Shown here piece after piece: positions 5,424-63,528 of a stretch of DNA of 64,000 nucleotides. The translations under genes and the position numbers were made by a program. The notes under the pieces were generated by a model, which did no database searches, was not told the DNA's origin, and saw only the letters and a list, made by a program, of their open reading frames with translations. The stretch spans positions 58,243-122,242 of the forward strand of contig JAHHHR010000012.1 of NCBI GenBank assembly GCA_019359245.1, in the 5' to 3' direction. How positions within the stretch are numbered: the first letter of the stretch is position 1; the number at the start of each line of letters is the position of its first letter. This DNA comes from Nostoc desertorum CM1-VF14 (lineage in GTDB: Bacteria; Cyanobacteriota; Cyanobacteriia; Cyanobacteriales; Nostocaceae).

Positions 5424-5433
5424 AAGATAAAAA

Positions 5434-8300: not shown

Positions 8301-8331
8301 TACCAATTTTCCCAAATCAGGCTATTAGAAT

Positions 8332-8489: not shown

Positions 8490-8536
8490 GTCCTAATATT
8501 GATTTTTTTAATTACGAATTACGAATTGAAAATAAG

Positions 8537-9373: not shown

Positions 9374-9375
9374 TC

Positions 9376-30790: not shown

Positions 30791-30982
30791 AATATTAACA
30801 TCCACAGAGAATATACACTTTTAGTCTTACAATCAAACTTATGTTGGTAGTGTCATGAAGGGAAGGGTTTTTCCGCAGTGGAACGCTTTTTTGGAGGCAG
30901 ACCTCACCTACCGTTCAGCATACTACCCTGATCTTCATATCCAAATTGCAAAAATATTGACAATCTAGATAACTCCAAATTT

Positions 30983-32113: not shown

Positions 32114-32343
32114 GTATACTACTAATAATCTGCTTATAGCTACGGCTGAAAATGCTAGCTGCGATAGTTTTGGGGTTCATGATGTTTCAGATTTTAAGAG
32201 GATATTTGAAAAGTTACAAGTTGGGTAAAAAGCTCTCAGTTTATAAATAATTATCTAAGTTTAAACTAATACTAATGTATGGATTATTGTTGACAATTTG
32301 GCGAGATTTCTGGTTAATCTTTTTCAGAAATAATTTAGGATCT

Positions 32344-33465: not shown

Positions 33466-33528
33466 CTCATATCTCCCAATAAATTGATTTGATATCCCTA
33501 CGACTACTTAAATCATGCTTATTTCTGT

Positions 33529-34554: not shown

Positions 34555-34770
34555 ATATAACTACTCCCTTAAAAGAATTATTTTTTATCATATTTGCACG
34601 TCGTATTGAGGAAATATTTATGTAATGATCAACAGAAATATCAGAAATAGTGATTAATTTATTTGGCAATAATAAGTATGAAGTGTCATCAAAGTATTAC
34701 GGGATAAGTATTCTACATATTTTCAATATGTCTCTCCAAGCCTTGCTAGACAAGGTTTTCATTATTTTGC

Positions 34771-36447: not shown

Positions 36448-36531
36448 TTGTATGATTATACCTTTGGTTTAATATCCAGTTGTAAAATGTGCGGTACTAA
36501 GCACTCCACATCCTAACTCTAAAATCCTAAT

Positions 36532-37617: not shown

Positions 37618-37685
37618 AAATTAAAAGTTCCTAAGATACAATTTGAAAAGCCCATCTTGATATTTTCTGAGCAAATAAATTTATA

Positions 37686-38996: not shown

Positions 38997-39075
38997 ATGT
39001 CTATTTATTTACCTCTCAATATTGCTTTCATAGTTAATTCCTGCGTTCATAGTTTATAGCCCCAATAAATTGTTG

Positions 39076-40287: not shown

Positions 40288-40312
40288 GTCCTAAACGCTC
40301 GATTTAATAGGT

Positions 40313-41368: not shown

Positions 41369-41463
41369 ACTGTAATGGCTCTCAATATTTCAGTAAACAC
41401 AATACACTGAAGACCACAGATTTCGCATACTAAGTAATGAATAGCGGTTTATTCTTACTTAAT

Positions 41464-42621: not shown

Positions 42622-42785
42622 GAGTTTTTTGTTTTAAATCTGTTAAGAATAGCTTTATTTAAATAGCCAAAGAGGTTAAGTTTATGCTTTTTAGGTAGTG
42701 CAATAAACTTAGTAGTTAAAAATTACTCGTAAATTTATCGGCACTGTAAACTAACCAGAAAAATGAGTAAAATAAACCCCTCAGT

Positions 42786-44591: not shown

Positions 44592-44658
44592 TAGTTCTTA
44601 ATGTTATACAAACTAAATTTTTAGAATGGTTATCTAGAGCGATTTTGCAGTAGAGGTG

Positions 44659-44871
44659 TTACACCTGCAATGGAGAGCCTGTATATTTTAAAATTTCACA
44701 TCTTTTACTCAAAAAATGATCGATCATTTCAATATTTATTTTTACCTCACAAGTGTTTACTATATTTTCTAACAAATTCTTCAGAGCGTTTAAATTAACC
44801 TCCATGTCCAGCAAATTAAAGTTGCTTTTTGGAAATCCAGAAAATTTAATAATCAGTTCTCTTTGAAACAT
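44659..44871 (-). CDS. Doubtful small ORF (70 aa from ATG at 44871)
   Basis: An ORF only. It is AT-rich, matches no recognisable family, and the track start is TTG. Confidence 0.2.
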   Translation of the reverse strand: MFQRELIIKFSGFPKSNFNLLDMEVNLNALKNLLENIVNTCEVKINIEMIDHFLSKRCEILKYTGSPLQV

Positions 44872-44936
44872 ATTTTTTGGCAACCGAGGATATAAATATA
44901 AATAAACAGTAGAGAAATAAACAATAGCCGTTTTGT

Positions 44937-46028
44937 CTAAGTTATACTACTCGAGTGCTGTTTTAAACGATAGTAAGTTGGACGCAAGGCAATGAACGAT
45001 CGACGTGCCTTCAAGAAAAGCTTCTGTTGCCAACTTTTCATTGTACACCAGTCTTTATACGCTGGTATCGCGATGTTTGTCAAAAAATCTTGCCATCTTT
45101 TAACCATAGCGTCTGGCTGAGTTTCTTTGGAACGTGTCCAACCATTCTCAACCATTTCATGGCGAAATTGTTTATTATCTTTCAGACGTGACAGCGCAAA
45201 AATGACCTCCTCCACTGAAGTTGCTTCTAAGTAATCTAAATCGCTTTTACGTTCAGATCGAAATGCTGATTCATATCCTAAAATTGCTGGTACGCCCGAG
45301 TGCCAAGCACTGTACAATTTAGAAGCAGGCTTTCCTCTCCAATCGTTTGCGACTCCCATACTCCGAATCGCCAGAATCACATCTGTACTGCTGTAATCAT
45401 GCCATTCATAATGATTGAGTTTTTTATGAAAATTTAATCCTAAATCCTGAAGCTGATCGTACCAATTTTGCTCCCGAAACTCCGGTACTAAGTTCACTTC
45501 ATTACCTAAAAACATTACATTTTTAAAGGTTTCACCTCTTTCTAGATTGCGGGGGATAATTGCTGGCTGCGGCCAATGAGGAATAAAGTGACTTTCCCAC
45601 AGTTCCATTGATCGTTTTGCGATAACTTGATGGGGATTTTGAACGACATGAAGTTGTGCATAGGGATGCCTATCTACATCTGCTCGCAAACACACTAGCA
45701 ATAATTTAGCCCCAGGCTGAAACGAATTTGCTAGGAAATCACGATGAGTCACAACAATACCTTCGTCCGGCATTTCCGCTACTAACTTGCAAGGAAAGCC
45801 GTAATCATTGAGATAAAGATAGGTTTGCAATGTCCAAAAACAACCACCGCTCTGCATTGGAGAGATGGAATGCTGATCGCATTGCCACTCCCAATAATAT
45901 CTGGCATTCTGCGGTAAGCTACTAACGGATAGTTTAGTGTCAGGAAAATAAAAATAAATTTCTGGTAATTCTTGAAACATAAGATGAACTATTAAAAATA
46001 TAATTAAGTTGTAATTTTTATCAAACAA
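44937..46028 (-). CDS. Hypothetical protein in the polysaccharide island (possible uncharacterised glycosyltransferase)
   Basis: 363-aa ORF, tightly packed with an 8-nt overlap with the upstream GT2 gene. No motif assigned. Confidence 0.55.
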   Translation of the reverse strand: MFDKNYNLIIFLIVHLMFQELPEIYFYFPDTKLSVSSLPQNARYYWEWQCDQHSISPMQSGGCFWTLQTYLYLNDYGFPCKLVAEMPDEGIVVTHRDFLANSFQPGAKLLLVCLRADVDRHPYAQLHVVQNPHQVIAKRSMELWESHFIPHWPQPAIIPRNLERGETFKNVMFLGNEVNLVPEFREQNWYDQLQDLGLNFHKKLNHYEWHDYSSTDVILAIRSMGVANDWRGKPASKLYSAWHSGVPAILGYESAFRSERKSDLDYLEATSVEEVIFALSRLKDNKQFRHEMVENGWTRSKETQPDAMVKRWQDFLTNIAIPAYKDWCTMKSWQQKLFLKARRSFIALRPTYYRLKQHSSSIT

Positions 46029-46932
46029 TATTTTTTATTTCTTGAACCGCTAAATTCAGCCCTCGAAAATGTGCATATTTAAATCGGCGTTCTCGGGGGT
46101 GTAAAAACCAACTTCGAAAATAGTTTAGAAGTCTTGATTTCCCAGAATAGTTGGGTGGAGTTTTACCTCGAAAGGATTCTAGAATTGTGACAGAATAGGT
46201 TAGTCCTTCTATCAACCTTAAAAGATACTCTTCTTGTAAACGATTTGACGGGATAAGATGAGTCAACTTTAAAGCTGAAAATATTCCAGTGCCTAAACCA
46301 TTATCACAAGCTGTATATGCTAGATCGATATCTTCACATGCTGAAAGTGATTTACCTTTACGCCCTAACTTGGAACGTTTAGGGTCTTTGCGAATTAATT
46401 CAGCATACTTTTCAGCAACAATTCTACGAACGCACAAACCCGCACCATAAGGGGTAGTTTCATCCTGATGGATTAAATTTGACCATTTGTCTTGATTGAA
46501 CTCCCGGATTGCCAATTTACCCCAAAAAGGCTTCGTCCAGTCTGGCGGTTGTTCCTCAAATTCTGCTACAGCTTGTCCACCCCAGGCTCCAAGTATCGGC
46601 CACTGGTTACCAATTTGCAAGGCAATCGCTAAATAGTCCGCATCTAAAACGTTATCGTCATCTACAAATATGATAATATCGGCTTGAGCCGCTTGAATTC
46701 CACGCAGACGAGATGGAGTCAGACCTAGTCGCTCCTCACGCAGATGACGAGCATTAAGATGCCAATTCAGATCGACTTTTTGACAAACTGGCTGAACACT
46801 TGCATTATCAATTAGTACTAATTCCCACTTTTCCATAGGCAATGTTTGCGCTTTCAAAGCCTTAAGTACGCGATCAAAATATTCAATTCTGGGGTTGTGA
46901 GTACAGATGATAATACTGAGGGCAGGTTTCAT
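46021..46932 (-). CDS. Glycosyltransferase family 2
   Basis: 303 aa with LSIIICTHNPRIEYFDRVLKAL..QT and IIIFVDDDN (DxD). Confidence 0.85.
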   Translation of the reverse strand: MKPALSIIICTHNPRIEYFDRVLKALKAQTLPMEKWELVLIDNASVQPVCQKVDLNWHLNARHLREERLGLTPSRLRGIQAAQADIIIFVDDDNVLDADYLAIALQIGNQWPILGAWGGQAVAEFEEQPPDWTKPFWGKLAIREFNQDKWSNLIHQDETTPYGAGLCVRRIVAEKYAELIRKDPKRSKLGRKGKSLSACEDIDLAYTACDNGLGTGIFSALKLTHLIPSNRLQEEYLLRLIEGLTYSVTILESFRGKTPPNYSGKSRLLNYFRSWFLHPRERRFKYAHFRGLNLAVQEIKNIV

Positions 46933-47042
46933 TTTAGTTGGCTTCTTGTAGGTATTGAATAGCTATGAACGAATGCAAAACTATGCAAATAATTATGGAA
47001 TATTCGATCTCCGAAAATCGAGATAATCTCGATCATTGCACA

Positions 47043-47993
47043 TCAAACATTTTGAATCATCTTTGAACTTGCAGACAATTCTGTAGTTGTTTCAGTCGCC
47101 AACCCTTTGAAAAAATTGAGTAACTCAGGATGGCGATCATACTGATGGATAATTGCCGGATACTGATCTCCAATTTTAACTCGTCCCTGAGCAAAATCGT
47201 CAGTAATTTCACTAGAATCTTCAAGACTGATCGTAGCGATAAGTCCTTGATGGTTAGTAGTCAGTTCGAGTTTAATGTGGTTCTCAAAAATCAAGTAAAT
47301 ATGGGCAGCTTGATCGTATCCAAAATCTTGAAAGATCATTTGCGGGAGATGTCTCCACATCTCATCACATAGCTCGGTTAAATAATTCTCGATTTTCTCG
47401 GCTGAACCTAGTGTTACACCGGCACAGGCAACTAGCTTATCTGAAAATCTATTCAAAACATCCCGACCATAAGCAGCCTCAATCCAAGTAGATGTATAAC
47501 GTTCATTTCTAATAATTTTCGGCTCAAGTCCAGAAACTAATTTTCCATCCAGATGACTAAACGGATCTCTTTGAATCACCACATCACGACAATCTGTGAG
47601 TAGAACGTTTGAAAAAACATTGTGGTGAGACTTCAAAATTTGGAGTGCAATAAAAAACCGCTCGTGGATAATCCGAACTGCCAGTTGACCGATCAACCTG
47701 AGTGGATCAATCGTAGCTGAGTATTTTCTTTTGCTTAACTGACGAGCCAACCAAGTAAAAGAAGGACGGGTTCGGTAATTAGCCAGTCTGGCAAACTGTT
47801 TGCGGATGGATGCACCAATATAGACAGGTCTTACAAATGGATACTTTTCTCGCAGCTTTTCTATAGATTTGCGATCTTGGTGATAGACGATTAGAAAAAC
47901 CGTTGTATTTTTGCAATTTATTGCTACTGACCAGAGGAAAATTTGAATATCAGCTTCGGTGTAACCTGTAGCGGCTGTAATAATTGCATTCAT
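47043..47993 (-). CDS. Hypothetical protein in the polysaccharide island
   Basis: 316-aa ORF. The N-terminus MNAIITAATGY...IFL.S resembles Rossmann/GT-A-like starts, but nothing can be assigned. Confidence 0.55.
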   Translation of the reverse strand: MNAIITAATGYTEADIQIFLWSVAINCKNTTVFLIVYHQDRKSIEKLREKYPFVRPVYIGASIRKQFARLANYRTRPSFTWLARQLSKRKYSATIDPLRLIGQLAVRIIHERFFIALQILKSHHNVFSNVLLTDCRDVVIQRDPFSHLDGKLVSGLEPKIIRNERYTSTWIEAAYGRDVLNRFSDKLVACAGVTLGSAEKIENYLTELCDEMWRHLPQMIFQDFGYDQAAHIYLIFENHIKLELTTNHQGLIATISLEDSSEITDDFAQGRVKIGDQYPAIIHQYDRHPELLNFFKGLATETTTELSASSKMIQNV

Positions 47994-48222
47994 GCCTTGT
48001 TTCCTTTAATACGAACCTTCATTATGCTTTTCATCAAGCATCAAGACTCTACACTTAGAGCCTGTCAAGAAACAACTTTTACAATTTATTCTCTAGAAAG
48101 CTTACTGAGAAAGCATTTCTAGCTCAAAAGAAGCAAGATTGTTATATGACAAGCTCTTAGGATATTGATGCCCCTTTTAGATAGATTATGCAACTGGTTA
48201 ACGGAACTTACGCTAGCTAAAG

Positions 48223-51200
48223 TTAGGCAGCTTTCCACCGGCCAATTTCACCGCCGTAGAGGCTGGCATAGTAAAGATTTCCGTCAAGTCCCGTCTCCAT
48301 GTCAATGATATAGGGTAAGTTGTCAAACACTTGAGTAGACTTTACAGTTCCATTTGGATTAAAGAATGTTGTATATATAGTTCCCAATCCAACATCGTTG
48401 TAGAACAATGCACCATTATAAATTGCGGGATAGGAGTTCCCAGTATAAAAGTCACCCATGATTAGGGCAGTAGTTGGCAGCCCATCAGAGTTCTGGCTGG
48501 CATCATGGTTGCGAGTTAGCAATGGAGAAACTACTGTCTGTCCGCTGTTATAGAACGCTTGCGCCTGAGGTAGAGTGCTATACCCTGCATTTTGTGGGGA
48601 ACCTTCAAAGTAAGGCCACCCAAAATTACTGCCCCTCGTTGCTACGTTAATTTCCTCCCATGTGTTCCAACCTACTTCACCGAGATAGGGAGTTCCTGTT
48701 GTTGGGTTGATAGTAAAGCGGAAGGAATTTCGCAATCCGAGGCTCCACACCTTGGAGCGGTTGCTGTCCAGATTACCGTTGGAGAATGGATTGTCGGCAT
48801 ATCCTTGTCCGGTGAGAGGATTAATCCGCAGCAGTTTGCCAGATAAATTATCGACATCTTGGACGCGAGTTGATCGCCAGTCAACTGAGTTGTAGGAAGT
48901 TCCATCCCCAACGGTGACATACAACGATCCATCGAGCCCAAATTGAACTTGTCCGATACTATGGCTGTCACTGTCACCTGCCAAGTAGTCTCTGATATTG
49001 TTGTTGTGATCAAAGTTGGTATCTGTTGCCGAATAGTCTCTCCCAATATTACTAGTGTCCGCATCTTCAATTAGTGCTGGCGGTGCTGTAATAGTTGAAC
49101 CATTGACAATTCCAGAGGGAAGGGTGGTGAAGCTAACCGTACTATCCACATCGGGACGGCTGGTGTATTGCCAGAGACTATTCTTGCCGAGCAATACCAC
49201 TTCACTGTTAGGCAATGCAGTGGTGTAGTTTGTGGCGGGGTTAGCCGTCACTCTGATCAGACGGGCGGGACGATTCCCAAGTCCATCTGGACCTGCTAAC
49301 CCTGTGTTATTTTGGGTTTCTGGGGGGTCATAGGTAAATAGTAGGTAGACATAGTCCCGACCTTGATTTTGACCAAAGGACGGATCGACAGCCAGCCCTA
49401 GTAAGCCGCGATCAGCCACATTATTGACCTGCGCTGAAATATCTATAAAGGGTGTAGGCCGAAGCCCTAAGGACACTGGTAATGGAGCAGTGCTCGTGTT
49501 GATCAGCACCCCAACGTCGCTGGTGTGCCAGTTGGCAGTAGCAATATCGGCTTTACCGTCATTATTAAAGTCAGCTACATTCAGACTAAAGGGAGTCCGG
49601 CCCGTAATGTAAGTGCTGGGAGCGGCAAAGGTGCCATTGCCGTTTCCAAGCAACACACTAATCGTATTACCTCCAGGATTATCGTTGTTGGGATAGTTGC
49701 CCGCTGTATTGGCCGTAAGCAAATCGAGTATGCCATCACCATTGATGTCACCGATCGCCACACCCTTGGGCACGCTACCCGTTGCATAGCTCGCGACTGG
49801 TGCAAAGCCACCGATGCCGTTACCTAGCAACACCCCTACCGTGTCAGCGTATTCGTTCGCGGCAACGAGATCGATCCGACCATCGCCATTTAGATCGGCT
49901 GCGCGGAGTGAGTGGGGACCATCGCCAATAATATAATTCGATGTACTACCAAAGATCCCAGCACCAGAATTAAGTATGACACTTATTGCATCAGTACCCT
50001 GGTTGGCAACTGCTATATCGGCTCTGCCATCGCCGTTGAAATCGGCAAGCTGAAGAGAGTGTGGTGCACTACCAACAACGTAGTCAGCGAAGTTCCCGAA
50101 CGTGCCGTTACCATTATTTCGCATGATGCGGACGATCGTGCTCCCCCATCCAGTCACGGCGATGTCGATGTCACCATCCCCATCCACATCTGCGGCTACT
50201 GCTTCATGGGCCCCAGTTGATCCCGCATAGCTGACACTAGGCGCAAAGGTTCCATTACCGTTACCGAGTAGTACATTGACATTGTTGGAGGTCTGGCTGG
50301 CAGTAAATAAGTCAAGCCTGCCGTCACCATTGAAGTCTGCCGCAAACACTGATTTCGGCTCAACTCCAACTCCAAAGTTGACAGCAGGGGCAAAGGTGCC
50401 ATTACCGTTGCCGAGTAGGACACTGACGTTGTTACTGCCAGCATTGGCGGTCGCTAAGTCAAGCCTGCCGTCCCCGTTAAAATCGGCTGAAACGATTCCA
50501 TGGGTGTGAGTACCAGTGGCATACTGCTGAACGGGAGCGAATCTCACGGTATTATTTGGCTGTACGAAAGTTCTGACTACCCCACCTTTTTCGGCGATGA
50601 ACATTAATTGACCATCTGGTGACCAATCGAATGTAGTAGGCTGGTTCAAACCGCCAACTATCTGCTCCCGTGGTAAGGTCAATAGTCGAGGTGGTGGTGG
50701 GGTGTATGTACCTATGACCAATTGGGCATCTGCCCAGTCGGCATGATCCGAACCAAAACCATTGCCCCCATCGTTTACCACTAGCGTTAGGGTTTGTTTG
50801 CCTGTGACATCGACATTCGCTAACTGCGTATCACTGAGTCCTGTCATGACTCCACTGTCAAAGAGGACTACTCCATCTGCCAAAATCCGGAAGACTACGG
50901 AGCCATTTCTACCGACTTCGTCATCTACTCCAACATAGGCGAAGAAACTATTGTAAGCTCCTGCAAGATTGTAGGTGATCTGAGAGCCAGCATGGACTCC
51001 CAGTCCTTTAGCATAGGTCACACCATTGAGTGTCAATGTGTTACCATCAGCTGCTTCTTGTTCACCATTTGAGCGATCTCTTTCGACTGGTCCATAGCCG
51101 TTGGTTGATGAGGCAAAAGGGAGATCGCTCAGGTACGTTAGAGTTGGCGCAGATCCGTCGCGAATTGAGATCGAAGAAGTGCGAGATGGTCCGAGATCGG

Positions 51201-53718
51201 CACCTGTAGGATTTTGAATCAACAAACTGACTGTTGTATTTGTATTGGCAGCACCATCATTGAGCGTTTGAACGGTGACCATTTTCTGGGTTTCGCCTGG
51301 TGCAAAGGTCAGGGTGCTAATCGGAATCGGGACGTAGTTGACATTCGGAATCGCCGTTGAGTTACCGCCAGTAAAGTAATCGATTGTCGCGACTCCCGTA
51401 GTATCTCCTAGTCTTTGAATTGGGATTGTGACAATGCTGCCTTCTGCTACCTGAGAGCTATTGGATCCAACCACCAAGATGGATTCCACCGTGTTCTGAA
51501 AGGTGCCTAATAGGGTGTCAGCAGATGTAGTGTTACCAAAGGAATCTCGCACTTCTCCAGCTAATAAGGTCGCAGTGTAGGTACCGCGATCGTTCCAATT
51601 CCAGATGCTATCGGGTGCTGTAATCTGATACGTGGCGGTTACCGATGGACTGTTTGTGTTGGGTGTCACACTCACCAATTGAGCTAGTTGAGAGAACCCG
51701 TTCGGTCCAGTGACCCGAACATCACTGCTGTTAATTGTACTGACGTTCACCGCAGTAGCATCTGCATATGTAACACTAAATGCGTAAGGTGCAGAAATAC
51801 TAGTACTGATTGCTGCTGCTGTTAGAGTAGGAGTTGGGGTGCTGGTATCGGGACCCGACGGAACTGAAGTCAACCGAGCACCCGCCCAATCGGCATGGTC
51901 ATACCCAAACCCATTCCCGCCATCAGTTACCACCAGTCGCAGGTTCTGTCTCCCCGTCACATCGACATCCACAGTACGCGTGGCAGTGATGCCCGTCATT
52001 ATGCCACTATCATAAATCTGTACCCCATCAGCCCACACTTGGAAGACGACGGAGCCATTGCTGCCCACCGTATCATCTACGCCAATATCTGAAATAAAGC
52101 GAGTATAGCTCCTGCCTAGGGCGTAAGTCGTATCCGAGCCAGCATGGACTCCCAGTCCTTTAGCATAGGTCACACCGTTGAGTGTCAATATGCCACCATC
52201 AGTCGCTCCTTGTTCGCCGTTGGATCGGTCTCGCTCGATAAGTCCCCAGCCATTCGTCGCCGATGTCGCTGTCAAATCGCTTAGATAAACAGTCGTTCCC
52301 ACTACAACCTGGAAAGTTCCTAGGGTTGCCGCCGCGATCTCATTGCTGCTGGTATCGCTGACTTGAGTACTTTCCAGCGCGACAATATAGGTTCCCGCTT
52401 CGTTTGTATCCCAACTACCACCCGGAGCCCCAATCTGATAGGTTGCTATAATTTGCAAACTGTTAGCAGCAGGAGTTGCGCTGATAAAAGTAGCTGCTTG
52501 ACTGTAGCCATTGAGACCTGTCACCAACAGGTCATTGGAGTCTAGAGTACTAAAATTGACAGCAACATTATCCCTGTATGTCACTGTGAAGGTATAGGGA
52601 GTAGTGCTGCTGGGCACTGTTGTCAGTGTGCTAGCGTTGAGCGTTGCAGATGGAGGGGTAGTATCAGGTGTAGGAGTGCTTGCAATGAGTTGAGCATTTG
52701 CCCAATTGGCATGGTCATAAGCAATGCCGTCGCTTCCACCAGTAACCACCAACCGCAGGTTCTGTCTCCCAGTCACATCTACATCCACGGTTTTTGTGAT
52801 ACTGCTACCAGTCATTATTCCACTGTCGTAAATCTGTACCCCATCTCCCCAGACTTGGAAAACGACGGAGCCGTTGTTACCAACCTCATCGTCTACACCA
52901 ATGTCTGAAATAAAGCGGGTATAGTTCCTCCCCAAGGCGTAGGTAATGTCCGAGCTAGCATGGACTCCTAGTCCTTTGAGATAGGTCACACCATTAAGTG
53001 TCAGTGTGCCTCCATCTTCTGCTCCTTGTTCACCGTTGGACCTATCTCGTTCGGCTGGCCCCCAGGCATTTGTCGCCGATGTCGGTGTCAAATCACTCAG
53101 ATAAAAACTCGGTAAGATTCCTTGGTAGGAGTCCATCAAGGAAGTTGTGAAAGGTATAGCCGTTTCAATCTTGCCAGTAGCATACTCCAGATTCCAATCG
53201 CCACCTTGCAGGGAATTGCCTGTAGGATTTGTAGAGGCTGCAACATCCGCTCCAGTCAAAGCACTTATCTCGTTGACGAATGTTTGCCCGAATTCTCCGG
53301 CCGCAATATTACATCCGTAAAAAAGAATATCCGCTCCTGGAACAAGAGATGATTTCCATTGTTTTATCTCATTTGCATATTCTTGAAGGGAGTTCGCACT
53401 GAGAAAACTGTTTCCTAATTGCAGAGCCGCAACATTTCCATGGGAAATGATATTAATGCCTGACAAACCCTCATAGTGCTTGAGAGTTTCGGTTATTTGG
53501 GTAATCCCGTTTCGAGTAGGATCTAGGAGAATTTTGACATCTGATTGCAGGTTTACTAAGACTGTTAGAGGATTGGAAATATTTTGATCGACAAAAGTAA
53601 TCGTTTGTGGACTTATTAAGTTGTTTCCAGGAAATGCTGGTAGTTGTAGAGGATTTGTGAATTGCTGTGGAACTAATGGCGATTCAAATGTCTGGATAGC
53701 AAAATAATTGTCTAACAT
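48223..53718 (-). CDS. Giant multidomain protein: DUF4347 - 3x NPCBM (with Ig-like spacers) - Calx-beta - PQQ-type glucose/sorbosone-dehydrogenase-like propeller interrupted by a seven-repeat FG-GAP/VCBS block
   Basis: 1831-aa uninterrupted ORF. Approximate nt spans on the minus strand:
- DUF4347: 53110-53718 (ILFYGCNIAAG..LTGADVAAS..GGDWNLE).
- NPCBM: 52688-53103, 51871-52287 and 50719-51135 (YLSDL..WGP.ERDRSNGE..LNGVTY.KGLGVHA...DHA.WA.A.L).
- Calx-beta: 51190-51480.
- FG-GAP x7: 49495-50520 (DFNGDGRLDL...).
- Dehydrogenase-like segments: 50570-50690 and 48223-49480. Confidence 0.88.
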   Translation of the reverse strand: MLDNYFAIQTFESPLVPQQFTNPLQLPAFPGNNLISPQTITFVDQNISNPLTVLVNLQSDVKILLDPTRNGITQITETLKHYEGLSGINIISHGNVAALQLGNSFLSANSLQEYANEIKQWKSSLVPGADILFYGCNIAAGEFGQTFVNEISALTGADVAASTNPTGNSLQGGDWNLEYATGKIETAIPFTTSLMDSYQGILPSFYLSDLTPTSATNAWGPAERDRSNGEQGAEDGGTLTLNGVTYLKGLGVHASSDITYALGRNYTRFISDIGVDDEVGNNGSVVFQVWGDGVQIYDSGIMTGSSITKTVDVDVTGRQNLRLVVTGGSDGIAYDHANWANAQLIASTPTPDTTPPSATLNASTLTTVPSSTTPYTFTVTYRDNVAVNFSTLDSNDLLVTGLNGYSQAATFISATPAANSLQIIATYQIGAPGGSWDTNEAGTYIVALESTQVSDTSSNEIAAATLGTFQVVVGTTVYLSDLTATSATNGWGLIERDRSNGEQGATDGGILTLNGVTYAKGLGVHAGSDTTYALGRSYTRFISDIGVDDTVGSNGSVVFQVWADGVQIYDSGIMTGITATRTVDVDVTGRQNLRLVVTDGGNGFGYDHADWAGARLTSVPSGPDTSTPTPTLTAAAISTSISAPYAFSVTYADATAVNVSTINSSDVRVTGPNGFSQLAQLVSVTPNTNSPSVTATYQITAPDSIWNWNDRGTYTATLLAGEVRDSFGNTTSADTLLGTFQNTVESILVVGSNSSQVAEGSIVTIPIQRLGDTTGVATIDYFTGGNSTAIPNVNYVPIPISTLTFAPGETQKMVTVQTLNDGAANTNTTVSLLIQNPTGADLGPSRTSSISIRDGSAPTLTYLSDLPFASSTNGYGPVERDRSNGEQEAADGNTLTLNGVTYAKGLGVHAGSQITYNLAGAYNSFFAYVGVDDEVGRNGSVVFRILADGVVLFDSGVMTGLSDTQLANVDVTGKQTLTLVVNDGGNGFGSDHADWADAQLVIGTYTPPPPRLLTLPREQIVGGLNQPTTFDWSPDGQLMFIAEKGGVVRTFVQPNNTVRFAPVQQYATGTHTHGIVSADFNGDGRLDLATANAGSNNVSVLLGNGNGTFAPAVNFGVGVEPKSVFAADFNGDGRLDLFTASQTSNNVNVLLGNGNGTFAPSVSYAGSTGAHEAVAADVDGDGDIDIAVTGWGSTIVRIMRNNGNGTFGNFADYVVGSAPHSLQLADFNGDGRADIAVANQGTDAISVILNSGAGIFGSTSNYIIGDGPHSLRAADLNGDGRIDLVAANEYADTVGVLLGNGIGGFAPVASYATGSVPKGVAIGDINGDGILDLLTANTAGNYPNNDNPGGNTISVLLGNGNGTFAAPSTYITGRTPFSLNVADFNNDGKADIATANWHTSDVGVLINTSTAPLPVSLGLRPTPFIDISAQVNNVADRGLLGLAVDPSFGQNQGRDYVYLLFTYDPPETQNNTGLAGPDGLGNRPARLIRVTANPATNYTTALPNSEVVLLGKNSLWQYTSRPDVDSTVSFTTLPSGIVNGSTITAPPALIEDADTSNIGRDYSATDTNFDHNNNIRDYLAGDSDSHSIGQVQFGLDGSLYVTVGDGTSYNSVDWRSTRVQDVDNLSGKLLRINPLTGQGYADNPFSNGNLDSNRSKVWSLGLRNSFRFTINPTTGTPYLGEVGWNTWEEINVATRGSNFGWPYFEGSPQNAGYSTLPQAQAFYNSGQTVVSPLLTRNHDASQNSDGLPTTALIMGDFYTGNSYPAIYNGALFYNDVGLGTIYTTFFNPNGTVKSTQVFDNLPYIIDMETGLDGNLYYASLYGGEIGRWKAA

Positions 53719-54234: not shown

Positions 54235-55494
54235 TTATACTTTTTGTTGACCAAAAGTAAAATACAGTTGTTGTTGCTCAACTTGAGACGTGGTTTTATC
54301 TGAGGTATTTTCAATTAAAAATAGCCCCTTGCGTCTTAGGGATTGTTCAATAAGAACCTCCTTTAAAATATCTTCAGAAAACTGTTCTTGCTGGACAAGA
54401 AGCTCTCCTAACTTATGGTTAGTAGCACTTTGTAACGCTAGAATTTTATCCAGAAACTGCTTTCTTACAAGCTTTTTTTCTAATACAAGGCTACCAAATT
54501 GAATATTTTGGTTCTTCAGATAAAACTTTAACTGTTTTAAAGATATTAATTGCTTTGACACTAAAATTTCACCAATTTTTAAATTTGGGTTTAAACTTTG
54601 CTCTAGTAAAGCTTGTCTGATATCTTCTCTAGTTACAATATTTTGTCGAACAAAAATTTCACCAATTTTTTCAGGCGTAAAATCTAAATTTTCTATATCT
54701 GTTCCTAATAAAAGATTCTTTGTTTGATTAGAATTATGCTTATGGGTGATTGCCAACTCCTTAATAGCTAAATAGATAAAATATGGAATTGTTGAAGCGT
54801 AACGCTTCCAAAGACGAAGTGGCTCTTGTGTTAACCGATACAACCATTCCAAACATAATTGTTGAACCCAATGGGGAGCGCGTGGAGTAATCCCTGCGTA
54901 CATAGAGAATACTGCACCTACACCAACCATTACTGCTTGAATCTTTCCGTGATAGTGGGACATCCAAATTTCCTGTTTAGGACATCCCAAACAAACAAAA
55001 ATAATTCCCGCACCACTTTGATTAATTTCTTCAATTAATTCTGTATTATGACTTTTGTCAATCTCATCAATAGGAACAAAGGGAATGGATTTCATTCCTG
55101 CAACTTTTAAAATCGGATATTCTTCGTCTAGTTTTCGCTTAATTTTGTCTAAAATCTCTTGTGTAGAGCCAAGAAAATAAACTGGCTTTCCAGTGATTTC
55201 AGCTAAAGCACACAAATTAAGGAAAACATCCATTCCTGATACTTGATTTTGGTGATAAATCCCCAATTGGCGTAACATCAACACTAAAGGCTTGCCATCA
55301 GGGGTAACCAAATCTGCTTTATTTAAAATTTTTCTAAATGAAAAGTTCCAATGGGCTTCCATAAGCATATGAACATTGGCTAAATAGACAACCTTACTAG
55401 CCCTCATATTTGCCCAGCGCAAAATTAACATAATCTGCTCATCCAAAGGCAAACACGTAATAGGAACATTAAACAAACCTTTCTTGGGTATCAT
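54235..55494 (-). CDS. WecB/TagA/CpsF-family (GT26) glycosyltransferase fused to four C-terminal MshEN/T2SSE_N-like 24-residue repeats
   Basis: 419 aa. The N-terminal 250 aa or so carry the GT26 pattern (V..ANVH......PDG.P.V......FLG.....GCPKQE.W...........GVGA.F). The C-terminal repeats (nt about 54343-54670) are KIGEIFVRQNIVTREDIRQALLEQ, KIGEILVSKQLISLKQLKFYLKNQ, QFGSLVLEKKLVRKQFLDKILALQ and KLGELLVQQEQFSEDILKEVLIEQ. Confidence 0.85.
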   Translation of the reverse strand: MIPKKGLFNVPITCLPLDEQIMLILRWANMRASKVVYLANVHMLMEAHWNFSFRKILNKADLVTPDGKPLVLMLRQLGIYHQNQVSGMDVFLNLCALAEITGKPVYFLGSTQEILDKIKRKLDEEYPILKVAGMKSIPFVPIDEIDKSHNTELIEEINQSGAGIIFVCLGCPKQEIWMSHYHGKIQAVMVGVGAVFSMYAGITPRAPHWVQQLCLEWLYRLTQEPLRLWKRYASTIPYFIYLAIKELAITHKHNSNQTKNLLLGTDIENLDFTPEKIGEIFVRQNIVTREDIRQALLEQSLNPNLKIGEILVSKQLISLKQLKFYLKNQNIQFGSLVLEKKLVRKQFLDKILALQSATNHKLGELLVQQEQFSEDILKEVLIEQSLRRKGLFLIENTSDKTTSQVEQQQLYFTFGQQKV

Positions 55495-56736: not shown

Positions 56737-57015
56737 AAATCCTTGAGCAAACTTTGCTCTTGAATAGTCATAGTCTATCCAAAGAACTTCAAGATAACTC
56801 TTTCAATCGCTTCGTAAAGGCAATTGCCTCTAAAGGTTCCAATGCGAATCTGCAAAGATATAACACTTAGAATGCTCATGCATAGCCGATTCATCTATAG
56901 CTATTAAACTAGGCTCGATTTAGCCTACAGGCTACTCCTAGATAGATTAGATGTTATTTATTAAATTCTATTGACGAATCAAAGCTTAGAGTACACCCTA
57001 AAAAAATAATTGAAT

Positions 57016-59193
57016 ATGCATATTTTAATAGCAGCTTTACATAGACCTATTCAACCAACTGGTATTTGCAGACATGCTGCTAATCTAGCCCACTGCTTAG
57101 CAGAAAATAAAGAAGTTACCAGAATCAGTTTAGTTATCGGATCTTGGCAACAGCATTATTTTAAAGCTGCTTTTTCTCTTGATTCTGAAAAAATTAAACT
57201 AATCATTGTCAACATCAAAAACAGTTCCGTTGTCAGGAATAGTTGGTTTCTCAGTGGCTTACCTCAATTAGCAAATAATCTCGGTTCAGATATTGTTCAT
57301 CTTTCCTTTCCTTTTCCTTTTTTTAGAGCTAGTTTTAACGCTTATGTAGTTACTACAATTCATGATTTATACCCCTACGAATGTCCTGAAAACTTTGGTT
57401 TTCCTCAAGCTTGGTTTAATCGTTTATTTTTTAAGCAATGCATTAGCAATAGCGATGGACTTGCTTGTGTATCTCAAGTTACATTAGAAAAACTAAAAGT
57501 TTATTTTCCTCATCTTGATCCACATAAAGAAATCGATGTGATTTATAATTATGTTGATTTTGAAAAGTTAGAACCTAAAATACCTCAACAACTACCGAAA
57601 AACAGTTCATTTTTATTGTCTGTTGCCCAGCATCGTCAAAATAAAAATTTAGATTTATTGATTAAAGCTTATTCTTGGTTATTAGATAACAAAAAATTAA
57701 ATCCAGATGCTAAGTTAGTGATTGTCGGTACTTCTGGGCCTGAAACTCAAAATATTAAGAATTTAATTAGCGATTTATCTTTAGAGACTAAAGTAGTTTT
57801 GCTAGCAGCCATCGATGATTCAGAATTATGCTGGCTATATCAAAATTGCCAAGCTTTTGTAATCCCATCCTCTACAGAAGGTTTTTGCTTGCCCCTAGCT
57901 GAAGCGTTGTATTGGAGTAATATAATTGTATGCTCTGACATACCAATTTTTAGAGAAATCGGTAGTTATAAATGTACTTATTTTTCTTTAGAAAATGATG
58001 CTGTTAATAATCTCGGTCAAGCCATTATTCAATCTATCAGTAGGTCTAGTTTATCAAGCTATACTAATGTATCTCGTTTTGAGAAGTCAAATATAGCCAA
58101 GCAGTATTTAAATTTATATTCTAGATTAAATCTAGAAGAAGAAACCCGATTTTTGAAAAATATACAAGAGACTGAAAAACTCACTAAGGTAAAATTTACT
58201 ATTACTACCTTAGATGAAAGAATTATCATACAAATTCCTGAGAAATTGAGCGTATTTGAAGCACTAAATTTAAAGCAGATTTGCCAAGAAATAACCCAAA
58301 GAGAGGCTATTTTCAAAGAAATAATTATTGACTTCTACCAAACAATTTTTATGGACAGTAGCGGTTTAGGAGCTTTGGTTAGTATTTGGAAAACTGCTCA
58401 AGCAAAGGGAATTATCGTGCTTTTCAAGAATGTTACACCCCAGGTTTGGTCAGTGTTAAGCCTGACAGGGCTAGATACAGTTTTTTCTATTAAATCTAGT
58501 TTTGAAACACATTTTATAGCAACAGATTATGCCTTGGATAAGGAGAGGGCTTTTCGCATGAACAAAGACCAGCTCCCAGCAACTCATCTTTCTGTAAAAT
58601 CTTGGATTAAAAGATTTATAGATGTTATTGGTGCTTTAGTTGGTTTAGTTATAATAGGAATTGTGTTTGTTCCGGTTGTAATTGCTATTCAAATCGATGA
58701 TCCTGGGCCTATTTTCTTTAGCCAAGTTCGTTGTGGTTGGATGGGTAAGAAGTTCAGAATTTGGAAGTTTCGCTCTATGTGTATAGATGCAGAAGCGAAA
58801 AAATCCCAAGTTAAAAATCAAGTACAGGGTGCTTTTTTTAAGAATGAACAAGACCCCAGGGTTACGAGAGTCGGTAAATTTATTCGGCGAACCAGTATTG
58901 ATGAACTGCCACAATTTTGGAATGTGTTGAAAGGAGATATGAGTTTAGTTGGGACGAGACCACCCACACCTGATGAAGTAGAACATTATGAAGTACCACA
59001 ATGGCAGCGTTTAGACATCAAACCAGGAATGACGGGAGAATGGCAAGTAAATGGTCGATCTAGAGTCCGTAGTTTTGAAGATGTAATTCGCATGGATTTG
59101 TTCTATCAACAGAACTGGAGTCTGATGTACGATTTGAAGTTGATTGTTAAAACTTTCGCCGTTCTGTTTACTAAAAATAGTGGCGCTTACTAA
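57016..59193 (+). CDS. Triple fusion: GT4 glycosyltransferase - STAS (SpoIIAA-like) domain - polyprenyl-phosphate sugar phosphotransferase (WbaP/EpsL-type bacterial sugar transferase)
   Basis: One continuous ORF; I prefer the ATG at 57016 to the TTG at 57010.
- GT4: VIPSSTEGFCLPLAEAL.
- STAS, nt about 58186-58500, with FMDSSGLGAL.
- TM helix plus sugar-transferase core, nt about 58602-59190: DDPGPIFFSQVRCG..GK.F.IWKFRSM, RVT.VG.F.R..S.DELPQ..NVL.G.MSLVG.RP, ending ..GAY. Confidence 0.85.
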   Translation: MHILIAALHRPIQPTGICRHAANLAHCLAENKEVTRISLVIGSWQQHYFKAAFSLDSEKIKLIIVNIKNSSVVRNSWFLSGLPQLANNLGSDIVHLSFPFPFFRASFNAYVVTTIHDLYPYECPENFGFPQAWFNRLFFKQCISNSDGLACVSQVTLEKLKVYFPHLDPHKEIDVIYNYVDFEKLEPKIPQQLPKNSSFLLSVAQHRQNKNLDLLIKAYSWLLDNKKLNPDAKLVIVGTSGPETQNIKNLISDLSLETKVVLLAAIDDSELCWLYQNCQAFVIPSSTEGFCLPLAEALYWSNIIVCSDIPIFREIGSYKCTYFSLENDAVNNLGQAIIQSISRSSLSSYTNVSRFEKSNIAKQYLNLYSRLNLEEETRFLKNIQETEKLTKVKFTITTLDERIIIQIPEKLSVFEALNLKQICQEITQREAIFKEIIIDFYQTIFMDSSGLGALVSIWKTAQAKGIIVLFKNVTPQVWSVLSLTGLDTVFSIKSSFETHFIATDYALDKERAFRMNKDQLPATHLSVKSWIKRFIDVIGALVGLVIIGIVFVPVVIAIQIDDPGPIFFSQVRCGWMGKKFRIWKFRSMCIDAEAKKSQVKNQVQGAFFKNEQDPRVTRVGKFIRRTSIDELPQFWNVLKGDMSLVGTRPPTPDEVEHYEVPQWQRLDIKPGMTGEWQVNGRSRVRSFEDVIRMDLFYQQNWSLMYDLKLIVKTFAVLFTKNSGAY

Positions 59194-61392: not shown

Positions 61393-63528
61393 ATGAAAAC
61401 AAGTAAATCTCATCAAATAGAGTCAATTAATCAAAGTTACCAAAATTATGAAGCTGCGGAAGGCGGATTAAATTTAATTGATTTAAAAGACAACATTATC
61501 CGGCAGATTCATATCGTATTAGGAATAACTATTTGTATGTCTTCTTTAGCTTTTTTTAGCGCACTCAGGCGTACTCCTACTTATCAAGCTAGTTTTGAAA
61601 TACTGTCTGAGCGAGTAAGTATTGAAACAAAAGTTACTTCTTCTGTTTCACAATCCAAAGAAACCACAGAAGACATTGGGGCTGTCACTTTAGACGAAGT
61701 ACAAATAAAAAACTTAAAAAGTCCTGATATCATTACGCCTGTCGTTACAAAACTAAAATATAAGTATCCAGGAATTAATAATGACTCAATTACTAGCACA
61801 CTAACCTTAAAAGCTGATGAGAAAAAAGGCATTTTAGAAGTAGCTTACCAAAACAGCGATCGCCAACAAGTTAAAGATGTTTTAGAAGCGTTAACAAAAG
61901 CATATTTGAACTATAGTTTAAAAAGAAGACAGTCCGGAGTAAATCGAGGACTAGATTTTTTAAACCAGCAAATTCCCAGAATACAGACTAAGGTTAATAT
62001 ACTTAATTATAAAATCCAACAATTAAGAAAAAAATATAATATTATCAACCCACAAATTCAGGGTTCTCAAATATCTCAAAGGATAGATAGTTATATTATT
62101 AAGCAAGTTGAATATAAATCACAACTAGAAAAAACTCAAAAGCTAGCTGGTCTTGCTAAAAAAGAACTCAATGAGCGGTCTACTACATCAACTACAGCTA
62201 TGCTAATTGGTACTTCCCGATACAATGCATTATTGGAAGATATACAAAAAATAGATAGTGAAATTGCCAAAAAATCCGTCATTTTTTCAGATCAAAGCAT
62301 CCAAATTCAAAATTTACAAGAACAAAGACGATCCATAGTTTCTCTAATAAATCTAGAAATTGCCACTATCCAACAGAAAATTGACAATCAGATTAGGTTA
62401 GAAAAAGAACAGGTACAAGCTATTAATGAAGAAATAGCAAATATCCAACAAAATTTCCAAGAATGGTTAGAGGCTACAGGACAATACGAAAATATCGAAC
62501 GAGAAATGACAATCACAGTAAAACAGCTGAATGAACTTTTAATTCAAAGAGAAGCCCTACGACTGGAATCTGCTCAAAAAGAAGCTCCTTGGAAGTTACT
62601 TACTCTCGTAGGAGAACCCAACACAAATGCTGCTAGTATTGCTAATTATATAGTATTGGGTACCCTCTTAGGGTTGTTGATTGGTGTAGGAGCAGCATTG
62701 CTCTTAGAGAGCTACCAAAATCTAGTTTACAATCCTAATCAAATTCAAGAAATTACTAATCAACCAATTTTAGGAATTATTCCCTTTAACCGCTATTACA
62801 AAAAATTGTATTTTCTGAAAAAATTCAATTCAATTATTCCACCATATTCAAAAACAGAGAAGTCAAAGAATAAAGATTATCATAAAAACTTTACTTTCAA
62901 TAATATGCTCTTCCCACCTGTGGAAGCTTATGCTTTTTTAGGATCTAACTTGGGTTTGTTTGAAAAGGATAAAAATATTCATTCTTTGATTATTACTTCC
63001 ACGGTATCTGGTGAAGGAAAATCTACTGTAGCGCTTAATTTAGCTAAAGTAATAGCTGCGACAGGAATCAGAGTCTTAGTTGTTGATGTTGATGTGCGTA
63101 ATCCAGATAATTTAACTAGCGCTATGGCATTAAATTCAATCAAAGGTCTAAGTGATATTTTATCGTCTGATAGTTTAAGTACTGAGATAAATGTCAAGAA
63201 CGTTATTCAAAAATCTTTTTTAGGTGAGAATTTATTTATTTTGTCATCGAGAAATGCAAGTAGTGATGTTAATACTAGTTGCTTACTAGCTTCTTCTAAA
63301 ATGCGAGACTTGATGAAAGAATTACAACAGATATTTGAGTTAGTAATCTACGATGTTGCTTCTATTGTTGATTATGCCGATGTAAATTTGTTAGCTAATC
63401 ATGCTGATGGAGTAGTTTTGGTAACTGGTTTAGGTAAATTACCAGGTTTAAAGCTCAAAGAAGCTGTTTCTCAATTAAATATATCTAAAACACCTGTTTT
63501 GGGTGTAGTAATTAATAATTTGGTCTAA
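61393..63528 (+). CDS. Polysaccharide co-polymerase (Wzz/GumC/Wzc-like, PCP-2a architecture) with a C-terminal P-loop kinase-like domain
   Basis: 711 aa: TM1 (IVLGITICMSSLAFF), a long coiled-coil periplasmic region, TM2 (IVLGTLLGLLIGVGAALLL), then STVSGEGKST (Walker A), VLVVDVDVRNP (Walker A') and ELVIYDVAS. There is no C-terminal Tyr cluster. Confidence 0.85.
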   Translation: MKTSKSHQIESINQSYQNYEAAEGGLNLIDLKDNIIRQIHIVLGITICMSSLAFFSALRRTPTYQASFEILSERVSIETKVTSSVSQSKETTEDIGAVTLDEVQIKNLKSPDIITPVVTKLKYKYPGINNDSITSTLTLKADEKKGILEVAYQNSDRQQVKDVLEALTKAYLNYSLKRRQSGVNRGLDFLNQQIPRIQTKVNILNYKIQQLRKKYNIINPQIQGSQISQRIDSYIIKQVEYKSQLEKTQKLAGLAKKELNERSTTSTTAMLIGTSRYNALLEDIQKIDSEIAKKSVIFSDQSIQIQNLQEQRRSIVSLINLEIATIQQKIDNQIRLEKEQVQAINEEIANIQQNFQEWLEATGQYENIEREMTITVKQLNELLIQREALRLESAQKEAPWKLLTLVGEPNTNAASIANYIVLGTLLGLLIGVGAALLLESYQNLVYNPNQIQEITNQPILGIIPFNRYYKKLYFLKKFNSIIPPYSKTEKSKNKDYHKNFTFNNMLFPPVEAYAFLGSNLGLFEKDKNIHSLIITSTVSGEGKSTVALNLAKVIAATGIRVLVVDVDVRNPDNLTSAMALNSIKGLSDILSSDSLSTEINVKNVIQKSFLGENLFILSSRNASSDVNTSCLLASSKMRDLMKELQQIFELVIYDVASIVDYADVNLLANHADGVVLVTGLGKLPGLKLKEAVSQLNISKTPVLGVVINNLV

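Follow-up and report, generated by a model that had tools for sequence, protein, structure and literature searches.

A conserved cyanobacterial GT26 glycosyltransferase fused to tandem MshEN_N bundles is a candidate direct target of cyclic di-GMP

Introduction

The closest described system to the gene reported here is NfrB of Escherichia coli, a polysaccharide glycosyltransferase with a C-terminal MshEN-type motif for cyclic di-GMP (c-di-GMP), whose function requires binding of this second messenger (Junkermeier & Hengge 2021, PMC8669469). We analysed a stretch of 64,000 nucleotides from Nostoc desertorum CM1-VF14 (contig JAHHHR010000012.1, positions 58,243 to 122,242 of the forward strand; the whole stretch is called the window below), in which one gene encodes a protein of 419 amino acids (aa) that joins a glycosyltransferase of family GT26 (WecB/TagA/CpsF) to MshEN-type c-di-GMP-motif repeats. 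This fusion is a real, conserved feature. As in NfrB, the receptor-like part is C-terminal, position 10 of the repeated motif lacks Gly (it is Gln in motif I of NfrB), and the gene lies within a dedicated exopolysaccharide (EPS) cluster. The enzymes differ: NfrB is a processive integral-membrane GT2 synthase (DxD/QxxRW) of the synthase-dependent NfrBA-YbcH secretion system, whereas the Nostoc protein carries a TagA-like GT26 domain of the GT-E fold, from a family that is non-processive and works on lipid-linked acceptors. NfrB has one full MshEN domain with N and C subdomains, whereas the Nostoc protein has two MshEN_N bundles and no MshEN_C. A c-di-GMP receptor on a polysaccharide glycosyltransferase is thus already known from NfrB; what is new is the GT26 partner and the tandem (MshEN_N)2 form.

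The bundles resemble those of Vibrio cholerae MshE (5HTL) and Thermus thermophilus PilF GSPII-B (8PDK), in which two 24-residue motifs build each four-helix bundle and one c-di-GMP is bound; Lys at position 1 is shared with PilF GSPII-B (K167). In MshE and PilF these domains sit at the N-terminus of type IV pilus or type II secretion ATPases together with MshEN_C, whereas the Nostoc bundles are C-terminal and duplicated. They also depart from MshE in the spacer of the first bundle (module A), which has 6 residues instead of 5, and in having N, Q, K or E for Gly at position 10. On the enzyme side, TagA and TarA, the founders of GT26 (5WB4, 7MPK; PMC6493773), share the fold, the catalytic Asp, a QE pair and three Arg residues of the C-terminal appendage. 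TagA ends after this appendage at about 245 aa, whereas the Nostoc protein continues with a linker and a 120-residue receptor-like tail. MshEN_N without T2SSE_N1 is known from Cyanothece cce_1044, a stand-alone cyanobacterial tandem (MshEN_N)2, and from Methylobacillus EpsG, where it is carried by a tyrosine kinase, i.e. a Wzc-type EPS protein (Wang et al. 2016, Supplementary Table 4). Unlike the Nostoc protein, cce_1044 and EpsG have no glycosyltransferase partner, and both are absent from the constructs assayed for binding in Supplementary Table 6 of that study (Wang et al. 2016, PMC5013675). The architectures it describes include Glyco_trans_2_3-MshEN (NfrB), MshEN-Glyco_trans_2_3 and cyanobacterial stand-alone (MshEN_N)2, and no GT26 fusion (PMC5013675). 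Nor did we find a GT26-(MshEN_N)2 fusion described in the full-text literature on MshEN and cyanobacteria or on GT26/TagA/CpsF and c-di-GMP.

Cyanobacteria have many c-di-GMP cyclases and phosphodiesterases and very few receptors, namely the PilZ domain of cellulose synthase, CdgR/ComFB and candidate MshEN domains of PilB; reviews call their receptors scarce and their MshEN domains untested (PMC10124867, PMC12448109). A conserved GT26-(MshEN_N)2 family at the head of an EPS cluster, found in Nostocales, Pleurocapsales and related groups, offers a concrete and testable link from c-di-GMP to sheath, biofilm or EPS production. The general principle is established, and the hypothesis can be tested directly in a phylum short of receptors.

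Domain architecture of the Nostoc protein

The gene and its parts are as follows, all on the minus strand:

54235..55494: whole GT26 glycosyltransferase-(MshEN_N)2 gene, 419 aa and stop, from the list of open reading frames
54736..55479: GT26 (WecB/TagA/CpsF, GT-E fold) catalytic domain together with the helices of its TagA-type C-terminal appendage, residues 6-253
54799-55317: Pfam core of the GT26 domain, residues 60-232, PF03808
54670..54735: linker, predicted disordered and poorly conserved, residues 254-275
54508..54669: module A, units 1 and 2 (U1, U2) with a 6-residue spacer, residues 276-329, best candidate c-di-GMP site
54343..54501: module B, units 3 and 4 (U3, U4) with a 5-residue spacer, residues 332-384, diverged duplicate of module A
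54316..54342: nearly invariant tail segment, residues 385-393, SLRRKGLFL here and YLRRKGLFL in the family

The repeated units and the residues between them read:

U1, residues 276-299: KIGEIFVRQNIVTREDIRQALLEQ
Spacer U1-U2, 6 residues: SLNPNL
U2, residues 306-329: KIGEILVSKQLISLKQLKFYLKNQ
Link U2-U3, 2 residues: NI
U3, residues 332-355: QFGSLVLEKKLVRKQFLDKILALQ
Spacer U3-U4, 5 residues: SATNH
U4, residues 361-384: KLGELLVQQEQFSEDILKEVLIEQ

The N-terminus of the protein, MIPKK, agrees with the family consensus, and its end lies about 35 residues past U4. A reading made from the sequence alone (the sequence-only reading) had described four 24-residue C-terminal units in two pairs with spacers of 6 and 5 residues. 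They lie exactly where it placed them, and the pairs 276-299/306-329 and 332-355/361-384 have the spacing of tandem MshEN motifs. It was also right about the departures from consensus, which are K, K, Q and K at position 1 and N, Q, K and E at position 10 of U1 to U4. Positions 2-3 are IG, IG, FG and LG, and all four units end in the LxxxLxxQ pattern at positions 17, 21 and 24 (I292/L296/Q299, L322/L326/Q329, L348/L352/Q355 and L377/L381/Q384).

As a check, the sequence-only reading had named a hidden Markov model (HMM) scan for T2SSE_N/MshEN. The Pfam model of that name, PF05157, matched nowhere in the 419-aa protein, whereas NCBIfam NF053729.1 ('cyclic di-GMP-binding domain-containing protein, MshE-related', 53 positions) scored 58.8 bits against a cutoff of 38 (E 3.4e-16). 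We do not weigh the missing PF05157 match against the finding, because, as Wang et al. (2016, PMC5013675) reported, neither the first three helices nor the binding site was covered by the model version of that time. Scored separately, module A reached 42.8 bits, above the NF053729 cutoff, and module B 33.6 bits (E 2.5e-8), under it. The tail also gave partial matches to the MshEN regions of the NfrB, PRK15489 and EpsG models, the match to the NfrB model being confined to its MshEN part (20 bits against a cutoff of 1170). A tail profile built from 20 relatives and run against the PDB matched only MshEN/GSPII domains at E<=1e-3 (PilF 1e-12, Geobacter PilB 1e-9, MshE 5htl 2e-5), and its alignment to MshE covers residues 9-61, exactly the 53-residue binding motif of MshE. 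An MshEN_C/T2SSE_N1 alpha/beta subdomain was not found, as there is no PF05157 match and the protein ends so soon after U4; the module is MshEN_N without MshEN_C. HMMs of modules A and B match each other at 2e-4 and 2e-5, so the two modules are an internal duplication.

The predicted structure agrees with this assignment. The full-length AlphaFold2 (AF2) model has a mean predicted local distance difference test score (pLDDT) of 72 and a predicted template modelling score (pTM) of 0.56, with a well-predicted glycosyltransferase domain, helices in the tail and a pLDDT below 50 for linker residues 249-275. Modelled alone, the tail (pLDDT 86, pTM 0.72) forms eight helices arranged as two four-helix bundles. 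One bundle of 55-56 residues superposes on c-di-GMP-bound PilF-GSPIIB (8pdk, 8pfa) with a root-mean-square deviation (rmsd) of about 1.0 Å over 55 columns and on MshE 5htl with 0.9 Å, at a Foldseek probability of 1.0 for both; the Foldseek E-values are weak because the aligned stretch is short.

Residue conservation was computed across 121 family sequences. In module A, Gly3 (G278, G308) and Gln24 (Q299, Q329) are present in 121/121, position 1 is K/R in 98%, and Leu occupies positions 17 and 21 (292/296/322/326) in at least 97%. The MshE and PilF structures identify these invariant positions as ligand contacts, and exactly these have been lost in the non-binder XpsE (PMC5013675). Module B keeps the glycine well (G334 in 119/121, G363 in 115/121) and Gln24 less so (67% in U3, 64% in U4); position 1 of U3, Q332 in the Nostoc protein, is K/R in 105/121 family members (87%), and U4 fits the extended consensus in 17/121. 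Being degenerate in the family and starting with Q in the Nostoc protein, the second pair would be the lesser candidate. The mean frequency of the top residue is 0.82 in the glycosyltransferase core, 0.58 in the linker, 0.77 in module A and 0.60 in module B, and it is highest of all segments, 0.90, in the (Y)LRRKGLFL tail, where G390 is invariant. The curated HMM, the PDB matches of the profile, the confident model and the strong conservation of ligand-contact residues throughout the family thus all support the structural reading. The sequence-only reading had put forward a direct c-di-GMP receptor on a glycosyltransferase; its MshEN-type fold and motif are borne out by these data, with only the first pair a strong candidate. 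Domain identities, motif conservation, fold and gene context are established here.

The glycosyltransferase domain

The GT26 identity, also read from the letters beforehand, holds. Pfam Glyco_tran_WecG (PF03808) matches residues 60-232 with 194 bits against a cutoff of 27.4 (E 2e-57), and TIGR00696 scores 176 bits against a cutoff of 69 on the whole protein. A phmmer comparison with TagA of Thermoanaerobacter italicus (7mpk) gave E 7e-30, and the modelled glycosyltransferase domain aligns to TagA/TarA in Foldseek with a TM(target) score of 0.86-0.89. D66 corresponds to the catalytic Asp65 of TagA, Q174/E175 to Q167/E168, and R220/R227/R231 to R214/R221/R224 of the appendage; all six residues are invariant across the GT26-(MshEN_N)2 family. 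Three other TagA residues, Thr37, Arg83 and Arg205, are replaced by Leu38, Gln84 and Gln211, and in TagA Thr37 and Arg83 position N-acetylmannosamine (ManNAc). Because of these replacements the donor sugar is probably not UDP-ManNAc and the product probably not a teichoic-acid linkage unit. The TarA equivalog model scored 110 bits against a cutoff of 350. By sequence, the Nostoc protein is a member of the GT26 family and not a TagA orthologue.

We found no convincing transmembrane helix: hydrophobicity over 19 residues peaks at a mean of 1.59, near the usual cutoff, in a segment within the conserved glycosyltransferase core. A Pfam scan of the 419-aa protein found no GT2 domain of the kind that an NfrB-type synthase carries. 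Catalysis by TagA needs its C-terminal appendage folded onto the active site in a membrane-bound monomer, and the soluble dimer is inactive (PMC6493773).

Departures from the motif consensus and their precedents

The consensus residue at position 1, R, has been extended by experiment to (R/K/L), a set that includes K276, K306 and K361 and leaves out Q332 of U3. PilF GSPII-B has K167 and L196 at this position and binds c-di-GMP with a dissociation constant (Kd) of 6 nM, and its K167R variant binds 25-fold worse (PMC11731258). At position 10 the consensus Gly is replaced by N285, Q315, K341 and E370; Asn is the residue in 96/121 (U1) and 99/121 (U2) family sequences. There are precedents for this too, since NfrB has Q in motif I and Bd2402 has N in motif II (alignment, PMC5013675 supplement). 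NfrB binds c-di-GMP with a Kd of 1 µM (PMC8669469), and Bd2402 binds it tightly, at 0.04 µM in Supplementary Table 6 and 0.4 µM in its footnote (PMC5013675). Motif I of Geobacter PilB also has N at position 10. In view of these precedents, the deviations at positions 1 and 10 are not disqualifying.

The 6-residue spacer is no concern, because spacer length varies among binders: that of the c-di-GMP-binding PilF GSPII-C, counted as 7, is one residue longer than the Nostoc one (PMC11731258). An isolated MshEN_N binds with a Kd of 0.35 µM without MshEN_C (given as residues 1-65 in Supplementary Table 6 and as 1-62 in the main text; PMC5013675). Because position 10 fails the relaxed motif ([GAS] at this position), the family would be overlooked, and Asn-10 variants are likely missed, by motif-based c-di-GMP receptor censuses of cyanobacteria. 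The relaxed MshEN motif and at least the 2016 Pfam model under-detect such variants, so receptor censuses may be undercounts.

Distribution of the family and of its receptor module

At least 120 full-length homologue clusters (90% identity) exist, of about 416 aa and 57-98% identical, which carry only the NCBI name 'WecB/TagA/CpsF family glycosyltransferase'. NF053729 matched all 74 of the 74 family members scanned at E<=1e-6, with a best value of 2.4e-25. We surveyed loci on GTDB contigs, taking one genome per species, and kept 80. The fusion is present at 54 of them, all cyanobacterial except for two metagenome-assembled genomes (MAGs) labelled Gracilibacteria and Rhizobium, which we take to be mis-binned. 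Carriers include Nostoc, Calothrix, Mastigocoleus, Brunnivagina, Goleter, many Pleurocapsales, Hydrococcus and a Pseudanabaena MAG, and the nearest relatives of the window are Nostoc sp. XA013 (99-100% aa identity) and Nostoc sp. UHCC 0251 (97%). Calothrix sp. NIES-4101, Nostoc sp. FACHB-152 and Hydrococcus rivularis NIES-593 are among the carriers that can be cultured. Three further loci, two from Limnoraphis and one from a MAG, gave a weak module-A match only. Many other cyanobacteria have an orthologue of about 265 aa without the tail, and beside such fusion-less GT26 orthologues we found no separate MshEN gene ('Rosetta stone' adjacency) in the loci surveyed. Several Pleurocapsales have two GT26-(MshEN_N)2 paralogues per genome (L009/L028, L011/L016, L020/L031, L022/L025, L008/L030). 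Their neighbour sets differ, with or without a giant NPCBM protein or beside DegT-type genes, and belong to different polysaccharide clusters; given this, more than one pathway per genome may be gated alike.

We then searched for the module more widely by running the tail profile against 1.84 billion representatives, which gave 4632 representative clusters at E<=1e-3 and 448 at E<=1e-10; a single-sequence, word-indexed search with the 131-aa tail gave only 5 proteins. In relatives the same cassette occurs on ATPases of type II secretion systems and of type IV pili, Hpt proteins, FHA domains and GT2 (NfrB-like) enzymes, and on GT26 in only 2 of the 91 relatives scanned. With partners so varied and GT26 so rare among them, the cassette is mobile and the GT26 fusion is one narrow, mostly cyanobacterial lineage. 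Five FHA proteins (P0174, P0180, P0204, P0213, P0244) carry the whole (MshEN_N)2 cassette with an RRKGLF-type tail C-terminal to the FHA domain, their matches reaching profile position 124 and so including the tail. The large Hpt-containing proteins P0129 and P0133 have tandem bundles, and there the match ends before the RRKGLF-type tail.

PATAN/DUF4388 (PF14332) was considered as the identity of the tail and rejected: it scored 15 bits against a cutoff of 25, over profile positions 36-76, which are the helical insertion of that domain, compared with 58.8 bits for NF053729. Positions ~36-77 of the same Pfam model match the tail helices in 81 of the 91 relatives. The MshEN_N and PATAN/DUF4388 helical modules are evidently related; going by these matches, the helical insertion in PATAN domains may itself be a bundle of the MshEN_N type.

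Proposed control by c-di-GMP and its alternatives

As the best explanation of the whole we propose, and hold to be fairly likely, that the protein is a c-di-GMP-responsive peripheral-membrane GT26 enzyme with tandem MshEN_N bundles. Its probable reaction is transfer of the second sugar onto a primer linked to polyprenyl diphosphate, and this would be the earliest pathway-committed step in EPS synthesis of the Wzy/ABC-flippase type. From the data above we infer that the protein binds c-di-GMP, in what stoichiometry it does so, whether binding activates or inhibits, and how receptor and enzyme are coupled. Of these, binding by module A is a likely outcome. The bundle of residues 276-329 would most likely hold one c-di-GMP as MshE does: the Hoogsteen edges of the guanines would be met by the backbone amides that follow Gly278 and Gly308, hydrophobic clamps would be formed by Leu/Ile at positions 2, 17 and 21 of the motif, Lys276 and Lys306 would stack on the bases, and Gln299 and Gln329 would touch the ribose-phosphate. 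The second bundle, a degenerate copy, may be a weak binder or a scaffold.

That c-di-GMP binding regulates the transferase we rate as moderately likely. The receptor is tethered about 22 residues behind the TagA-type appendage, which TagA needs folded at the membrane; we therefore propose that ligand binding moves the enzyme between two states, the inactive one being soluble or oligomeric and the active one membrane-bound. High c-di-GMP would then switch polysaccharide synthesis on, as in NfrB, BcsA and other EPS enzymes; activation as the direction, and the appendage as the means, are plausible by analogy. The more specific claim that c-di-GMP directly gates a non-processive GT26 acting on a lipid-linked acceptor is tentative and, to us, somewhat doubtful.

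Several points weigh against this proposal. c-di-GMP binding is a prediction for every member of the family. AF2 was trained on MshE, so the fold match speaks for consistency and is not independent proof, and the full-length model shows no confident contact between receptor and glycosyltransferase (linker pLDDT below 50, pTM 0.56), which leaves the coupling mechanism without structural support. Gly at position 10 has been held necessary for the helix turn (Wang et al. 2016, PMC5013675), and the relaxed 2016 motif passes only 9/121 unit-1 and 5/121 unit-2 sequences. Module B is degenerate and, on its own, sub-cutoff. PilF GSPII-A stays non-binding even with its motifs restored to consensus, as the helix 1 N-cap and inter-subdomain packing block the site (PMC12002112); packing between the two bundles could likewise occlude the candidate site in the Nostoc protein. 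Leu38 and Gln84, in place of Thr37 and Arg83, set the enzyme apart from TagA in its probable donor sugar. Finally, local signalling lends no support: a Pfam scan of all large open reading frames in the window found no diguanylate cyclase or phosphodiesterase (GGDEF/EAL), and among the 80 related loci there was a single GGDEF. The window also gave no match to any Rfam family, c-di-GMP riboswitches included.

Alternatively, the bundles could be MshEN_N-derived and non-binding, and act as a protein-protein docking or oligomerisation module. The docking partner could be the Wzc-like co-polymerase, the STAS-bearing priming transferase or the ABC exporter encoded nearby, and a biosynthetic complex might be assembled in this way. 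We consider this unlikely. In its favour, XpsE, PilF GSPII-A and Deinococcus geothermalis PilB_3 are non-binding homologues, and presence of the motif alone does not predict binding; position-10 Gly is missing in most of the family, and the degeneracy of module B fits as well. The most conserved segment, the RRKGLFL tail, lies outside the c-di-GMP motif, and the same helices give Pfam DUF4388/PATAN matches that are sub-threshold here and stronger in relatives. However, the positions kept in module A (Gly3 and Gln24 of each unit, Leu17/Leu21) are precisely the ligand contacts that known non-binders have lost, and full conservation of a solvent-facing Gln and 98% conservation of Lys are hard to explain by the fold alone. 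NF053729 is moreover above its cutoff, while DUF4388 is below its own.

A further possibility, which we regard as improbable, is that the ligand is another cyclic dinucleotide, such as 3'3'-cyclic GMP-AMP (cGAMP) or c-di-AMP, or that c-di-GMP inhibits the transferase. c-di-AMP is also used by cyanobacteria, which counts for another ligand, as does the way in which specificity could be tuned by the non-canonical position 10 and by Lys at position 1. MshEN can also bind cGAMP (PMC5013675). Yet c-di-GMP is the physiological ligand of every characterised MshEN/GSPII domain (PMC5013675, PMC11731258, PMC8669469), and Gly3, on which the guanine-specific backbone contacts depend, is present. As to inhibition, nothing in the sequence fixes the sign of regulation, but direct c-di-GMP control of EPS enzymes is mostly activating in characterised systems (NfrB, BcsA; PMC8669469).

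A chance or low-complexity, heptad-like helical pattern unrelated to MshEN is scarcely credible: although L, I, K, E and Q abound in the tail, which gives weak spurious Pfam matches (Toxofilin-like, E 0.0096 for the isolated tail, and AvrPtoB_bdg; FumaraseC_C in relatives), this reading is refuted by the NF053729 E-value, PDB matches at E<=1e-3 that are all MshEN/GSPII, the 4632 matching clusters, a confident four-helix-bundle model with 1 Å superposition on solved domains, and conservation of specific motif positions across cyanobacterial orders.

The EPS enzymes characterised so far as direct targets of c-di-GMP are for the most part processive synthases, along with their co-polymerases. If the proposed c-di-GMP-responsive GT26 enzyme is real, direct control by this messenger would reach beyond synthase-type enzymes to early lipid-linked assembly steps, and for a pathway of the Wzy/ABC-flippase type it would be the first time that a second messenger had been seen to act post-translationally where assembly of the repeat unit becomes committed. 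Cyanobacteria would moreover gain a widespread class of c-di-GMP effectors, missed by motif-based censuses because position 10 is Asn and not Gly.

Gene neighbourhood

The GT26-(MshEN_N)2 gene heads a co-oriented EPS cluster of about 30 kb (55494 down to about 25997). Pfam and NCBIfam scans defined the following neighbours:

25997..53718, minus strand: co-oriented downstream EPS cluster
57010..59193, plus strand, divergent: GT4-STAS-polyprenyl-phosphate sugar-phosphotransferase fusion, 727 aa (Bac_transf E 8e-66, Glycos_transf_1, STAS)
61393..63528, plus strand: Wzz/Wzc-type polysaccharide co-polymerase tyrosine autokinase (Wzz and AAA_31/CbiA domains)

The cluster encodes a giant protein with NPCBM, FG-GAP and glucose/sorbosone-dehydrogenase (GSDH) domains, GT2 and GT4 transferases, a PglK/MsbA/HepA-like ABC exporter, a DegT aminotransferase, acyltransferases, a GMC oxidoreductase and a beta-helix protein. 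Assignment of its genes to the Hps/Hep equivalogs was tried and rejected, all scores being below the equivalog cutoffs, so we regard the cluster as an uncharacterised EPS cluster. Loci of Pleurocapsales and Nostocales show again the gene order Wzc <-> GT26-MshEN - giant protein - ABC - GT4 - GT2, and synteny is partly conserved from one taxonomic order to another. At 53.6-57.1 kb, promoter-like sites were no commoner than in shuffled sequence; terminator-like sites numbered 7 against 1.6 ± 1.3 expected, several of them inside coding sequence.

The product of 57010..59193 is likely the priming enzyme that makes the lipid-linked acceptor for the GT26 enzyme. It scored 282 bits with TIGR03025 (EPS_sugtrans), just below the cutoff of 295.55. 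This priming enzyme of the same pathway thus also bears a regulatory-type domain (STAS, anti-sigma-antagonist-like), and in many related loci the GT4, STAS and Bac_transf parts are separate shorter genes. The Wzc-like product of 61393..63528 matched TIGR01007 with E 2e-30 and 105.7 bits, just below the cutoff of 108.05. A Wzc-like homologue lies near the GT26 gene in 38 of the 80 related loci, usually divergent and immediately upstream. We found no MshEN module in the Wzc-like protein of the window, the arrangement known from Methylobacillus EpsG.

The gene of the giant protein (48223-53718, minus strand, 1831 aa) follows directly downstream of GT26-MshEN, and its place as a neighbour is conserved among Pleurocapsales and Nostocales, in 19 of the 80 loci. 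The protein combines DUF4347, three NPCBM domains, Calx-beta, FG-GAP/VCBS repeats and a glucose/sorbosone-dehydrogenase propeller, and the G+C content of its gene is 0.47-0.50, against 0.34-0.40 around it. The 1.5-kb divergent intergenic region upstream of the GT26-MshEN gene holds an open reading frame for a 141-aa right-handed beta-helix protein (56311-56736, plus strand), apparently what is left, after truncation, of a paralogue of the 645-aa beta-helix protein (25997-27934); Nostoc sp. XA013 (L002) has a 481-aa gene at this position.

At the distal end of the polysaccharide cluster lies a gene for a hybrid GAF-HisKA-HATPase-receiver histidine kinase (23548-25227, minus strand), a possible transcriptional-level regulator of the same pathway. 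Further away, 596-10632 holds genes of sugar-acid/inositol catabolism, encoding a periplasmic sugar-binding protein, a myo-inositol oxygenase (MIOX), a LacI-type regulator, the glucuronate isomerase UxaC, a short-chain dehydrogenase and a LarA_N-like protein; MIOX seemed unusual for a cyanobacterial genome.

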